Virus record (IMG/VR): IMGVR_UViG_3300021354_000450
Span: 1-64,000 of that record
Length of the DNA: 64,000 nucleotides
Reading direction: 5' to 3' (one strand)
Source: a virus
Position 1 is the first letter of the stretch, and every line of letters begins with the position of its first letter. The notes under the pieces were generated by a model. That model was not told the DNA's origin and ran no database searches. It saw only the letters and a list, made by a program, of their open reading frames with translations. Of this stretch, positions 2,743 to 32,103 are shown one piece after another. Made by a program: the position numbers and the translations under genes.

Positions 2743-3285
2743 ATGAGTTTAAAAGATTTAACAAAAGATAAACATACAGAAGCAGAACATACAGCATTTA
2801 TGAAAGCTGTTTTTAAAAATGCAATGCCATTAAGTGTATGGGCAGATTTTACATATCAAAAATCAAATCTATATGCAAGTATTGAAACAGTTGCACGTGA
2901 CGCAGGGATTACATTAGATTTTTTAGAAATCGAACGTGCATTAAAATTGTATCATGATGCAAAAACAATGACAAACGGTAACTATCCTAAATTAAGAGCT
3001 GTCACAATTGAGTATAGTCGTTATTTGTTAGATTTAGTTGGTCAGACAGATAAAATCTTAGCACACTTATATGTATGGCATATGGGTGATTTACATGGTG
3101 GGCAAATGATTAAGAAAGTAATTGATGCTCCTCATACTAATTTAGACTTTGAAAACATTGAAGAACTTAAAACAAAGATTCGTTTAAAATTAAATGACAA
3201 TCTTGCTGAAGAAGCAAACGTTGCTTTTGATTGGGCAATTCGTATTATGAAAAGCTATGACGAAGAATTTTCAACAAATGAATGA
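2743..3285 (+). CDS. Heme oxygenase (HemO/Ho1-like)
   Basis: LKDLTKDKHTEAE proximal His helix; AHLYVWHMGDLHGGQMI; EEANVAF. Confidence 0.92.
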   Translation: MSLKDLTKDKHTEAEHTAFMKAVFKNAMPLSVWADFTYQKSNLYASIETVARDAGITLDFLEIERALKLYHDAKTMTNGNYPKLRAVTIEYSRYLLDLVGQTDKILAHLYVWHMGDLHGGQMIKKVIDAPHTNLDFENIEELKTKIRLKLNDNLAEEANVAFDWAIRIMKSYDEEFSTNE

Positions 3286-3949
3286 AGTTTGGTCTAAAGT
3301 AATTTCATGTTCAGATGCAATTATTGAAAGGTTAAGCCATACAGGTGTTGAATCAACGGGCATCAATGATGCTCGTTTTCCTTGGAAAGATCGATTATAC
3401 AGCAGTCATATATATCGAAGGGCACACTTAAATATTGTCGATGCACGTGATTCACATAAATTGTGGATGATGCATTGTACAATATTTCCTCATTTACATG
3501 ATTCTAGTCCTATTTTTGGATTAGACATTATTGCTGGACCAACTCGTATCAGTGGTGCATTTCATGATTTCTCTAAAACAGGAAATCCTAACCATTCTAT
3601 GATGCATTGGTTTGATCAACGTGTTGTAGATCTAAATTGGAAGAAAGAACGAGAATTGCCAGACTGGGCAAAACAAATCTTTAGTCCTGCAATGGTTGCA
3701 ATAGGAGCTGTTGATAATTTAGATGAGATTGATCAACTTATTGAAGTTGTATTAACAAACTTAGATTATTATTTAGAAAATGTTGGTTCAACTCAAGATG
3801 ACTTATTTGGATATATAGATGAGCAAAATCGGTATTGCTATTATCAAAAACAGAATCCACATAATCCTCGTGTAATGCAAAGTTTAGGATTAAGTGAAGA
3901 AGATGCTAAATCTTTTGTTGAGGAAATAATGTTTCCAGAAATAAGATAA
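3278..3949 (+). CDS. Ferredoxin-dependent bilin reductase (PcyA/PcyX-like)
   Basis: RRAHL, MMHCTIFP, PIFGLDII, RELPDWAKQIFS, QNRYCYYQKQNPH; coupled to heme oxygenase; ATG 3278 preferred over 3257. Confidence 0.88.
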   Translation: MNEVWSKVISCSDAIIERLSHTGVESTGINDARFPWKDRLYSSHIYRRAHLNIVDARDSHKLWMMHCTIFPHLHDSSPIFGLDIIAGPTRISGAFHDFSKTGNPNHSMMHWFDQRVVDLNWKKERELPDWAKQIFSPAMVAIGAVDNLDEIDQLIEVVLTNLDYYLENVGSTQDDLFGYIDEQNRYCYYQKQNPHNPRVMQSLGLSEEDAKSFVEEIMFPEIR

Positions 3950-25282: not shown

Positions 25283-25415
25283 GAAACAAATGCAAAGCAA
25301 GAATTATAAATGTAAAATTTGTAATCGGGGTTGACAAGACTATAAATAGATTATAATATATACACATGTTGTTAGAACTGCTTAAAAAATATTTTTAAAT
25401 TTTTTAAAATAAAGG

Positions 25416-25444
25416 TTGACAACAGGGATAAATAAACGTATAAT
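25416..25444 (+). promoter_or_regulatory. Consensus sigma70 promoter upstream of the leader ORF and tRNA array
   Basis: TTGACA-17 bp-TATAAT with AT-rich upstream tract; a second TTGACA...TATAAT/TAATAT at 25331-25359. Confidence 0.85.
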
Positions 25445-25492
25445 TTACACAACTGCTAGAAATAGCAATAAACATTTTTAAACGAGAAAACA

Positions 25493-25639
25493 ATGCAAAC
25501 TAACTTTAGACAACATTTTAATTTATTAGCGAAACAAGGCGGCTCGATGTCTCCTGTATGGCAAACGATTAATTGTCTAACAAGTGATCGTGCACCGGAG
25601 AGCTATCATAGCTTAGGGTTTTTGAGGATTACTGTGTAA
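25493..25639 (+). CDS. 48-aa attenuator leader peptide containing all 20 amino acids
   Basis: MQTNFRQHFNLLAKQGGSMSPVWQTINCLTSDRAPESYHSLGFLRITV*; 34 distinct codons; overlaps the antiterminator arm. Confidence 0.7.
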   Translation: MQTNFRQHFNLLAKQGGSMSPVWQTINCLTSDRAPESYHSLGFLRITV

Positions 25640-25678
25640 AAGTATAAAATACAACACAGCAAAATTTAAAAACCCTGG
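25613..25678 (+). promoter_or_regulatory. Antiterminator hairpin
   Basis: TTAGGGTTTTTGAG (25613-26) pairs with TTTAAAAACCCTGG (25665-78); CTGTGT (25632-37) pairs with ACACAG (25654-59). Confidence 0.75.
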
Positions 25679-25709
25679 AACTTAAAAAACTCCGGGGTTT
25701 TTTGTTTTT
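25668..25709 (+). terminator. Rho-independent terminator (attenuator)
   Basis: AAAAACCCTGGA-11 nt loop-TCCGGGGTTTTTTGTTTTT. Confidence 0.85.
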
Positions 25710-25723
25710 AGCATGAAAGAAAA

Positions 25724-26254
25724 GTGAAAAATTTTAATATGGGAAAATTAGTAAGAAACAAAATATATAAAAGTAATCTTCAACGTCTTAAAGAAGATGT
25801 ATATAAAAAACCAAAATTAACGAAACATAAAACTAATAAAAAGCTAATAGAAAATTTAAAACAATCTATTGTTAATGAACAAAAAATAGAAATTAAAGAA
25901 ATATCATTACATGATCATTTAAACAGAATAAGACAGACAATTTTAAATGAGAATGTAATAAGTGGAAAACAAACAACTATTACAGAAGGATTTATTTATT
26001 TAATAGTAAATCCGGTTTGGAATGGATGGATTAAAGCAGGAATGACTGTTGATTTTGAAGAAAGATTAACTTCATACAATATATATGATCCGATAGGAAT
26101 GTATTCATATATTGATATAAAATGGACCAATGATAGGAAGCAAGCAGAAAAACAATTATTAGATTTTTTGAATATTCATTCAAAAAAACGAAAAGGTGAA
26201 TGGTTTAAAATAGAACATACCAAAGCACAAATATTAATGACACTAACAGTGTAA
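25724..26254 (+). CDS. GIY-YIG-like (T5orf172-type) endonuclease
   Basis: GFIYLIVNP...WIKAGMT...RL...RKGEWF. Confidence 0.75.
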   Translation: MKNFNMGKLVRNKIYKSNLQRLKEDVYKKPKLTKHKTNKKLIENLKQSIVNEQKIEIKEISLHDHLNRIRQTILNENVISGKQTTITEGFIYLIVNPVWNGWIKAGMTVDFEERLTSYNIYDPIGMYSYIDIKWTNDRKQAEKQLLDFLNIHSKKRKGEWFKIEHTKAQILMTLTV

Positions 26255-26336: not shown

Positions 26337-26486
26337 ATATTAAAATACATTATAGTCGATGGAAGGAATCGATACAAGACGTCTGTCCTTGTGTATGTGT
26401 TTTAATATTAAAGCATACTTAATGCTATATAATAGCTAGGCCAGCAGAGTCTCGGTAATAAAATTCTGTTAAGTGTGTTTTAATAT
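26337..26486 (+). ncRNA. Two tandem structured elements closed by a conserved ATATTAAA..A / TGTGTTTTAATAT stem
   Basis: 26337-50 pairs with 26395-408; 26405-22 pairs with 26469-86. Confidence 0.55.
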
Positions 26487-26548
26487 ACGTTCTCCACCCC
26501 GGCAAAAGGTTAAAATGCATAGCAGGAGAACGTTATAAATGTAGAATT

Positions 26549-26634
26549 GGGTGTTTATACCGTTAAGGAGACGGTTCCGGCTGTAACCCGGACGCTTTAT
26601 CGCTCTGATGGATCGTTACCATCAACACCCACCA
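26549..26634 (+). tRNA. tRNA-Tyr(GTA)
   Basis: GGGTGTT/AACACCC acceptor, loop CTGTAAC, long variable arm, CCA. Confidence 0.9.
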
Positions 26635-26715: not shown

Positions 26716-26799
26716 AACAAAAAGGTTGTTAAAACCTAAAATTGTAGTATAATAGAACTTGTTACTTAGTAACAATACGGCATCGTAAAGTGTCGTGGG

Positions 26800-26988
26800 A
26801 TGGTAAAAGCTGGATACATGTCTTTAACGTGAAATCAATTATGTGTTAATATGAGCCCAATTAAATATCAAGTACACTTGAGGCATGTATTAACAATGAG
26901 ATTGAAAGTAATTAAGAGTGGGGCTATTGGAGTTGATCACCAAAAACCTTGCAAGAAGAATGTTGAAACGCCAGCAACTTTACACCAT
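26800..26988 (+). ncRNA. Unassigned structured RNA
   Basis: ATGGT..GCTGG closes with CCAGC..ACCAT; ATACATGTCT pairs with AGGCATGTAT; promoter-like TTGTTA-16-TATAAT at 26726-26753. Confidence 0.45.
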
Positions 26989-28062: not shown

Positions 28063-28129
28063 GCTTTAAATGGAAAGGCCGTTCGTTTACACCGAGCAGA
28101 CAGAGGTTCGATTCCTTTCTAAAGCACCA
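28063..28129 (+). pseudogene. tRNA-Val(TAC) lacking the 5' strand of the D-stem
   Basis: Anticodon loop TTTACAC, T-arm and CTAAAGC-ACCA intact; only 67 nt. Confidence 0.7.
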
Positions 28130-28957: not shown

Positions 28958-29048
28958 GGAAGGTTATCTAACCGGGGATGTTAGCCTAGTCTTGAAAACT
29001 AGTGGAGCCTGTAAGGGCCAGGGGATCGATACCGCCAACCTTCCGCCA
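28958..29048 (+). tRNA. tRNA-Ser(TGA)
   Basis: CTAGT-CTTGAAA-ACTAG, long variable arm, GCCA. Confidence 0.88.
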
Positions 29049-29795: not shown

Positions 29796-30025
29796 GTATT
29801 GTCTAATTTATAAATATTATTATCCCACATTAGGAGTAATGTATTATGAAAGCAATACCATTAATTATATTAGCAATATTGTTGTTTCTGTATATTAACA
29901 TAGAAATAGCTTCATTAAATCCATGTTCGAACTTTTCACGTGATCCAAGTTCATGTAATTCAGATCATGACTTTGAAGAATAAACTTTAAATAGAAGTTG
30001 ACAAATAGTTTAAAGAGTTTATAAT

Positions 30026-31218: not shown

Positions 31219-32103
31219 ATGAATAACTTAGAACAATTTATAATTGATAATTCGTCCTTGGTTAAAAAACGAGAATGCAAAAATTATCCAGAATTATTTG
31301 TTTTGAAATATAGCAAGAAAGTATTTTATGATAACTTATGGAATGATCATTTAGAAGAATGTCGTGGTACTATTGTAGATGAAAATTTTAATTTAATATC
31401 ATATCCGTTTACTAAAATTTACAATTATGGTATTGAATCTAAAGCACCAGTTTTAGACTTAGATACTATTGTAGATGCATATCGTAAAGTAAATGGTTTT
31501 ATGGTTGCTGTAACATGGTATGATGGTGATATTTTAGTATCAACTACTGGATCTACTGATTCTGATTATGTAACAATGGCTCGTGAATTAATCGAACCAA
31601 ATTTAGAAAAATATCGTAATACTTGCAAACGTTTGCCAGAATATACTTTTATGTTTGAATGTGTTCACAGAAATGATCCACATATTATTCCTGAAACAGA
31701 AGGAATGTATTTGTTAGGATGTAGAATTAAACTTTTTGGATCAAAAATTGAAAGACCAAATTACAGCGATGCAAATATTGATTTTGGAAGTTTTGACGTT
31801 GATAGTATTACATGTACTATACGTGAATTGTTAGATTTAGTTAAAACTGTAAAGCATGAAGGTTTTGTATTTTATACTCACGATGGCATAAGTTCTAAAA
31901 TCAAAAGTCCATACTACTTAATTTCAAAATGGTTGGCACGTAATCCAAAAACTGATAAATTATTAACAGATGAGTTTAAAAAGAAAATTGATGAAGAATA
32001 TTATCCGTTACTTAACGCAATACGTGAAAACATTGAAGAATATACTTTAATGAATGAACAAGAAAGATTATCTTGGATTCAAAATTATTTTGAAAAAGGT
32101 TAG
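31219..32103 (+). CDS. RNA ligase (Rnl1/RnlA-like)
   Basis: LEECRG, PFTKIYNY, motif I KVNG, STTGS, TFMFE, EGFV, KIKSPYY. Confidence 0.88.
   Translation: MNNLEQFIIDNSSLVKKRECKNYPELFVLKYSKKVFYDNLWNDHLEECRGTIVDENFNLISYPFTKIYNYGIESKAPVLDLDTIVDAYRKVNGFMVAVTWYDGDILVSTTGSTDSDYVTMARELIEPNLEKYRNTCKRLPEYTFMFECVHRNDPHIIPETEGMYLLGCRIKLFGSKIERPNYSDANIDFGSFDVDSITCTIRELLDLVKTVKHEGFVFYTHDGISSKIKSPYYLISKWLARNPKTDKLLTDEFKKKIDEEYYPLLNAIRENIEEYTLMNEQERLSWIQNYFEKG

Follow-up and report, generated by a model that had tools for sequence, protein, structure and literature searches.

The closest known system to the element described here is the attenuator formed by the upstream open reading frame (uORF) of whiB7 (wblC) in mycobacteria and other Actinobacteria, in which ribosome stalling favors an antiterminator and hence read-through, and loss of the uORF start codon leads to constitutive expression (Poulton et al., PMC10274678). 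In M. smegmatis, the uORF of whiB7 specifies 19 of the 20 amino acids, and dropping its single Trp or its His residues abolishes the matching response; the amino acids that are encoded determine which starvations are sensed, and the M. tuberculosis uORF lacks several of them (PMC10274678). These experiments establish, in another setting, the principle of a leader that senses starvation. Here we describe a leader in IMG/VR virus record IMGVR_UViG_3300021354_000450, a 141,321-bp contig from a freshwater lake phage, the first 64 kb of which (64,000 nucleotides, nt) were analyzed and are called the window below. The leader, at positions 25416-25709 of the window, contains a 48-codon open reading frame (ORF), an antiterminator hairpin and an intrinsic terminator and lies upstream of transfer RNA (tRNA) genes. 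We consider it likely that this leader is a ribosome-mediated attenuator that senses the decoding of every amino acid, its leader peptide being a 20-amino-acid pangram.

Like whiB7, the phage locus carries a uORF in a 5′ leader with a compatible architecture, and its antiterminator, hairpin A, is the predicted default fold when no ribosome is present. In contrast, the whiB7 system is cellular and controls a transcription factor that deals with stress from antibiotics and alanine, whereas the phage leader precedes tRNA genes. In addition, the content of whiB7 uORFs is variable and enriched in Ala, whereas in the phage family it is completeness that is under selection, and the likeness is one of logic, with no relatedness in sequence expected. 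The textbook attenuators trpL, hisL, pheL, leuL, thrL and ilvL share with the phage leader a promoter, a short leader ORF, an antiterminator and terminator that have a strand in common, and a stop codon at a position from which a terminating ribosome would occlude the antiterminator. In the phage leader, the stop codon and the termination point are ~60-70 nt apart, which is also similar to trpL. However, classical leaders contain runs of one to three regulatory amino acids (thrL and ilvL being multivalent), whereas in the phage leader each of the 20 occurs about one to five times, without the runs of regulatory codons by which a classical attenuator is recognized. Classical attenuators also possess a 1:2 anti-antiterminator, which gives super-attenuation without translation and has no counterpart seen in the phage leader, and they control biosynthetic enzymes rather than preceding tRNA genes. 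T-box riboswitches resemble the phage leader in that tRNA state decides between terminator and antiterminator, but a T-box binds one specific uncharged tRNA directly and needs no ORF. The segment 25400-25720 has no match in Rfam at E ≤ 1, the T-box family RF00230 included, and the leaders of four relatives have none at E ≤ 0.1. A last possible likeness is to the attenuator-derived small RNA rnTrpL of Sinorhizobium (PMC6614838), in that a terminated leader RNA would be plentiful and might work in trans; for the phage RNA such a role is no more than a possibility, suggested by its additional conservation at the RNA level.

Full-text literature searches found no leader or attenuator described ahead of phage tRNA genes, in agreement with the initial annotation of this DNA, which knew of no such description, and the paper on Methylophilales phage Melnitz, which describes a transfer-messenger RNA (tmRNA) and also a glutamine riboswitch, contains no leader of this kind. 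What is new is the target (phage tRNA arrays), together with the evident selection for completeness and the family's size. Cellular tRNA genes are thought to be controlled at their promoters, by growth rate and guanosine tetraphosphate, and not by attenuation. To our knowledge, the control of phage tRNA arrays is essentially undescribed, and we know of no tRNA operon for which demand-driven control by attenuation has been reported.

The leader cassette in the window is made up of the following parts.

25331-25359, plus strand: upstream tandem promoter (TTGACA, −10 TAATAT/TATAAT), scoring 10/12 and kept in relatives L003 and L004
25416-25444, plus strand: main sigma70-type (T4-early-like) promoter, TTGACA-17-TATAAT, scoring 12/12
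25454-25467, plus strand: 5′ hairpin just past the start site, 5 bp with a GAAA loop
25484-25487, plus strand: Shine-Dalgarno (SD)-like GAGA, 5 nt 5′ of the ATG; the motif AGAGAA-N5-7-ATG recurs in the family
25493-25639, plus strand: leader ORF of 48 codons, with 20/20 amino acids by codon 38 and 34 distinct codons
25559-25597, plus strand: hairpin P1 inside the ORF, UGG...CCG closing ACGAUU/GAUCGU (helices 1-3, 89-97% of alignment cells paired)
25600-25614, plus strand: small hairpin P2 inside the ORF, 6 bp with loop UCA (helix 4, both-side changes in 5/5 pairs)
25615-25676, plus strand: antiterminator hairpin A, its 5′ arm formed by codons 41-48 and the stop codon
25669-25709, plus strand: intrinsic terminator as read from the sequence, (AAAA)CCCUGGA, 11-nt A-rich loop, UCCGGGG(UUUU) and U-tract U6GU5

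The perfect sigma70 promoter proposed in the initial annotation thus holds at 12/12, and recomputation of the ORF returned the same coordinates, amino acid count and codon count. Its ribosome-binding site had been called weak; the GAGA pairs with an energy of −3.0 kcal/mol against a median of −4.0 for genes of the source phage, which is ordinary. Hairpin A pairs 25615-25626 with 25665-25676 (12 bp) and 25632-25637 with 25654-25659 (inner 6 bp). Of the 14+6 bp first proposed, the 6-bp helix therefore stands and the 14-bp helix is reduced to 12, the two extra U-G pairs competing with the hairpin at 25600-25614. The base of hairpin A, AGGG:CCCU, takes up CCCU 25673-25676, the first 4 nt of the terminator 5′ arm; the terminator stem itself pairs CCCUGGA (25673-25679) with UCCGGGG (25691-25697), with an AAAA/UUUU extension and a U-tract up to 25709. 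Hairpin P1 is a possible pause hairpin, and P2 is missing in many members of the family.

Two homologues of the 48-residue peptide, both 88% identical, were found in metagenomic protein collections, and in one of them (L003) the leader is followed by the same T5orf172 gene as in the window and then by a 22-tRNA array. A profile of the three peptides retrieved ten further, more distant small proteins of 46-62 amino acids, and in every peptide-found contig with sufficient downstream DNA a tRNA array lies just 3′ of the small ORF. The genes 5′ of the leader vary by locus (sugar genes, AhpC/CMD, QueC or Thy1), whereas all of these loci have tandem promoters of the consensus type, a hairpin at the 5′ end, the motif AGAGAA-N5-7-ATG, the ORF, a long hairpin containing the stop codon and a near-identical terminator. 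The 5′ hairpin at the place of 25454-25467 recurs with varying sequence in 12 aligned relatives. Two loci reached through neighboring genes, L001 and L002, were rejected as relatives, their contexts being unrelated and without tRNAs. Nothing similar emerged when records of cultured phages were searched with the DNA and the peptide, and viral contigs likewise yielded nothing in an exact search for the terminator variant of the window and for patterns back-translated from the peptide; the leader family is known from metagenomes only.

Because relatives found by their peptide could bias the result for the ORF, viral contigs were searched with a 24-nt piece of the family terminator alone. This ORF-blind sample comprises 104 viral contig loci. 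Among those with sufficient upstream DNA, ~95/97 have an ATG ORF of 42-55 codons (35-36 in a few) that is homologous to the leader and whose stop lies 30-38 nt ahead of the terminator motif, whereas same-composition shuffles stay open 3-6% of the time. A terminator kept without the open frame, the pattern that the initial annotation had named as contrary to its reading, is accordingly not borne out by the relatives, and loci in which a short ORF and terminator precede tRNA genes, as it had anticipated, number more than 100. A covariance model, R1, built from 12 sequences finds exactly one full-length match in 100/100 loci. All 81 loci with at least 1.5 kb of downstream sequence have a same-strand tRNA 230-1024 nt downstream (median 501). 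Thus, the claim that the leader stands ahead of a tRNA array holds across the family (81/81), and in the window itself it is qualified by the T5orf172 gene and weak promoter-like sites that lie between. Promoters scoring at least 11/12 are found upstream of the leader in 75/78 loci, with two near-consensus promoters within 260 nt in 57/78, and the gap from the terminator to the first tRNA is free of near-consensus promoters in 55/78. The gap also holds, in 44/83 family members, a second conserved, GC-richer RNA element with A[AC]GGGCGG (it is seen in L007, L008, L010, L011, L013, L016 and L019, and is not in the window), which has no Rfam match. In L013, ARAGORN identifies a permuted (two-piece) tmRNA at 3192-3724, ~1.3 kb upstream of the leader.

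The amino acid content of the leader is best judged across this family. All 20 amino acids occur in 1.5% of 48-residue windows from long ORFs of the source phage, in 1/135 small ATG ORFs of its genome, which is the leader itself, and in 5.2% of open shuffles with the leader's base composition; taken alone, the 20/20 content of this leader is unusual, not overwhelming. Among 91 distinct leader peptides, however, 72 have all 20 amino acids and 16 have 19, compared with 15.5 ± 3.2 complete peptides, and a maximum of 25, in 2000 shuffles that kept column composition. Cysteine behaves in the same manner: exactly one is present in 76 of the 91 peptides and at least one in 83 (58.7 ± 2.9 under column shuffles), yet it is spread over 23 alignment columns, and one Cys wandering over 23 positions represents unusually clean selection on peptide composition and not on sequence. 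In the L004 copy, for example, C28D and R33H re-register hairpin P1, and a Cys is restored at position 31. Relatedness does not explain this completeness, since of 17 clusters with less than 40% identity to one another 11 have 20 amino acids and five have 19, and 15 contain Cys, over 11 columns. Moreover, the set is complete ahead of the first codon of hairpin A in 86/91 leaders, compared with 26 expected from within-peptide shuffling. Completeness of the amino acid set is thus under selection in the family, and as selection on amino acid content is visible only after translation, this supports a leader ORF that is translated or, judging from the alignments, under coding-level selection. Indeed, the ratio of nonsynonymous to synonymous substitution rates (dN/dS) is 0.16-0.35 in three close copies, and the ORF has no indels among close copies, which do carry them in the untranslated region and loops. 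The conserved peptide core is W.AIN.L..DRTPE.

In contrast to amino acid completeness, which survives peptide divergence to below 40% identity, codon diversity does not emerge as a selected trait. The 34 distinct codons are not significant given the peptide (P = 0.08), and the codons of the leader are not enriched for those that the phage's own tRNAs can read; the pan-codon part of the original proposal is therefore not supported, and the selected trait is one codon per amino acid. The over-use of scarce GC-ending codons that had been pointed out is real (G+C content at third codon positions 35% vs 16% for the genome; synonymous-choice likelihood P about 0.001), and most of the rare GC-ending codons sit within helices. 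In two relatives with complete though very small arrays the leaders are incomplete and enriched in the amino acids of the array's tRNAs, namely L005 (tRNAs N, T and W; P = 0.017) and L014 (C, E, L, P and Y; P = 0.002), and a third, L024, has no significant enrichment of this kind. A strict roster rule, in which the amino acids missing from a leader equal the tRNAs missing from its array, was tried and fails, with five leaders lacking an amino acid whose tRNA is present.

The second line of evidence concerns the RNA switch. In 110 of 110 loci, the minimum-energy fold of the nascent RNA has the CCC of the terminator arm paired to a GGG farther upstream; the GGG of the hairpin A 5′ arm lies mostly 20-27 nt before the stop codon, which is itself inside hairpin A and 25-36 nt before the CCC. 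A model-based alignment of 87 distinct sequences has 88.8% of cells paired, compared with 15-57% when partners are slid, and both-side changes occur in 19 pairs, a number reached by 0/500 shuffles. Importantly, the closing pair of hairpin A (columns 338-430), formed by the base before GGG and the fourth base of the terminator arm, is AU in 43 sequences, GC in 35, GU in 5 and other in 4; its covariation is also recovered by an anchor-based count (permutation P < 0.0002). The next pairs are CG/UA in 66/18 and 76/8 sequences. In the terminator, column 430 faces an invariant G (UG 48, CG 37). That its U/C variation is tracked by the antiterminator strand indicates that hairpin A reaches into the terminator arm and that the two structures are alternatives. 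The terminator stem covaries as well (family form CCCUAGG/CCUGGGG; helix 6, 99.8% of cells paired, with compensatory changes). The arms of both antiterminator and terminator therefore covary, including a pair within the shared CCCU/C, which supports the earlier claim that the structures are mutually exclusive, with CCCU 25673-25676 as the segment for which they would compete.

Energy modeling agrees with this arrangement. For the window, the model predicts hairpin A when the ribosome is absent or halted 20 codons upstream, and the terminator when the ribosome is positioned on the stop codon. Across the family, hairpin A wins in 72/92 leaders without a ribosome and in 84/92 with an upstream stall, and the terminator wins in 92/92 with the whole arm masked. 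No anti-antiterminator pairing to hairpin A's 5′ arm was seen; P1 and P2 covary, but neither of them pairs to that arm, and P2 abuts hairpin A without overlapping it. Read-through would accordingly be expected of a leader that is not translated, as it is observed in whiB7 mutants lacking the start codon. Conservation extends to the A-rich terminator loop (AUUAAAAAC), which is complementary to the U-tract; in full-length folds the terminator consequently loses to hairpin A combined with an AAAAACC:GGUUUUU hairpin, a fold that may stabilize released or read-through RNA. As for expression, a 189-nt RNA-library contig from a metatranscriptome of the source sample equals 25488-25676, and apart from two contigs the two metatranscriptome runs have no cover on a 6.8-kb stretch. 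These contigs have a depth of 2-6, and hence the missing flanking cover and the contig end at 25676 are uninformative on termination; the expression evidence for the leader is thin.

The comparative tests of the parts and their conservation, of covariation in both helices, of selection for a translated complete set and of the constant tRNA linkage support the attenuator interpretation, and for the mechanism itself we infer where ribosomes sit, which way the switch works and what physiological condition sets it off, as follows. Two strong early promoters would drive a leader of ~260 nt, the last eight codons of which (25615-25637) could pair with 25654-25676 to form hairpin A and lock the CCCU. 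An undelayed ribosome on the last codons or the stop would cover the 5′ arm, so that the terminator would form and transcription would end at ~25705-25709. With the ribosome absent, or stalled at any upstream codon, hairpin A would form and block the terminator, and the read-through polymerase would continue into the T5orf172 gene and the tRNA region. As every amino acid is encoded ahead of the arm, the leader should respond to a lack of any charged tRNA, the candidate causes being a decaying host tRNA pool, starvation and tRNA-cleaving defense. The phage thus probably steps up transcription of its tRNA region when a shortage of any charged tRNA slows the ribosomes. For the more general view, that large aquatic phages employ the leader as a translation-health sensor that turns any aminoacyl-tRNA shortage into transcription of a tRNA/RNA-repair region, we hold a slight preference. 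If true, phage tRNAs would be supplied on demand when decoding slows, a direct and testable model that would tie phage tRNA carriage to host tRNA pool decay and to tRNA-targeting defense. The leader would also serve as a compact natural biosensor of general translation stress. A large family, consensus sigma70 promoters and a length of ~260 nt make it testable in Escherichia coli reporters.

The following features downstream of the switch bear on this mechanism.

25739-26254, plus strand: ORF with a T5orf172 domain (Pfam PF10544, E = 6e-7) between the switch and the tRNAs, in identical synteny in L003
26549-33827, plus strand: array of 20 tRNAs (ARAGORN) with small genes interspersed
31219-32103: Rnl1-type RNA ligase within the tRNA array

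Several observations weigh against an all-amino-acid attenuator that governs the array. In the window the first tRNA, at 26549, is 840 nt past the terminator and behind the T5orf172 gene. Most tRNAs of the window could be fed independently of the leader from promoter-like sites, two of them scoring 10/12 (26243 and 26726) and three 12/12 (29998, 31164 and 33616); those near 26726, 29998 and 33616 had been flagged at the outset as possible bypasses. Among the relatives, 23/78 have a near-consensus promoter within the gap. Missing from the array of the window are tRNAs for Phe, Asn, Gln, Val and Leu-UUR (UAA), to which 15 leader codons correspond, so that feedback for these amino acids cannot be closed by the phage's own array; some other leaders also lack an amino acid whose tRNA sits in the array. 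The leader codons readable by the phage's 20 tRNAs amount to 56%, compared with 58% genome-wide. If the ribosome on the stop codon is given a strict footprint of 28 nt, the energy model yields the terminator in just 50/92 leaders. D and E of DRTPE, which complete the set, are encoded only 2-4 codons ahead of the arm, and stalls there may therefore mask it. Finally, synonymous sites of the ORF core are almost fixed family-wide (GCG, ATT, AAT, AGT, CTA, GAT, CGY, ACA, CCA and GAG), as are the loop sequences of P1. This constraint, for which the simple attenuator model has no explanation, suggests an additional function of the RNA itself, for instance in pausing, in binding a factor or in trans.

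Such nucleotide conservation, extending to synonymous sites and P1 loops, would also be expected if the terminated ~250-nt RNA were itself the product and the ORF secondary, that is, if the leader were a trans-acting or other structured RNA, possibly atop attenuation. It might then be a small RNA of the rnTrpL type, which derives from an attenuator, or a platform to which a protein or tRNA binds. Consistent with this, terminator loop and stem are identical over 24 nt in the 104 contigs, the leader transcript folds with z = −5.07 versus shuffles and has tandem strong promoters ahead of it, the RNA-library contig covers just the leader RNA, and there is precedent for an attenuator RNA that acts in trans (PMC6614838). 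However, a structured RNA leaves unexplained why the frame is open in ~95/97 loci, why 20 amino acids are encoded with a Cys that changes column, and why the set is complete before the arm. No Rfam family matches it, no target or partner is known, and we regard this explanation as unlikely.

Alternatively, the leader might sense translation but have an output other than tRNA transcription, such as the timing of early transcription into the next gene (here T5orf172) or RNA processing or stability, or it might work with the opposite polarity, translation promoting read-through. The protein gene directly behind the terminator in the window, the structured RNA found there in many relatives (A[AC]GGGCGG, 44/83 gaps) and the internal promoters within the array are in line with a different output. 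Nevertheless, tRNAs are the sole constant downstream content and the gap is promoter-free in most relatives, whereas the reverse polarity conflicts with the lack of any anti-antiterminator seen, from which an untranslated leader should read through; a switch of this kind seems distinctly improbable to us. Very improbable, lastly, is an ordinary small early gene with a functional 48-residue peptide, its own promoter, a leaky plain terminator and a hairpin that stabilizes the mRNA: T4-like phages do hold many small early genes with their own promoters, and the ORF is conserved with a dN/dS below 1 and a peptide core, but synonymous sites are conserved as much as amino acids, so that the ORF core is constrained as RNA, no fold or Pfam family was found for the peptide, a functional peptide needs neither a single Cys at shifting positions nor the full set, and the covariation backs a helix that competes with the terminator at loci universally linked to tRNA arrays.

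The phage that carries the leader was initially taken to be a jumbo phage. Its contig encodes GroEL, a curli-like module and a CHASE2 cyclase ~40% identical to those of Methylophilales phage Melnitz and Pelagibacter phage HTVC008M. This likeness, together with the genome size of 141,321 bp, marks it as a T4-like myophage that is large within the ordinary range rather than a jumbo phage. The T5orf172 ORF is a clade-specific insertion common to the window and L003 and missing in most relatives, whose gaps measure 230-600 nt. This T5orf172/MUG113-domain ORF is placed exactly between the attenuator and a conserved pre-tRNA stretch, and because it is present in L003 but not in other family members it looks like a mobile nuclease-type insertion.

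The tRNA region of the window shows further features of its own. The close relative L003 (1260-8161) retains tRNAs for Asn, Val, Gln and Leu(UAA), unlike the window array, in which Rfam detects weak tRNA-like remnants at 28063-28126 and 28958-29044. The 12/12 promoter-like site at 29998-30025 ends 1 base before tRNA-Arg (30026). Transcription starting ~7 nt past it would begin within the tRNA, which means that the site is no promoter or that this tRNA has an unusual 5′ end. The 410-nt array spacer between tRNA-Thr (26715) and tRNA-Glu (27126) folds with z = −2.66 and has no Rfam match. In both metatranscriptome runs of the source sample it is matched by exact RNA-library contigs, spanning 26778-26972 and 26787-26974, which lie just past the promoter-like site at 26726-26753 (10/12); the stretch 26778-26972 may represent a stable non-coding RNA encoded within the array. 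The pre-tRNA stretch at 26337-26548 is conserved in the nearest relatives (L005 5330-5470; L014 600-697) and holds repeated ...TGTGTTTTAATAT... arms together with a segment containing TATAAT.

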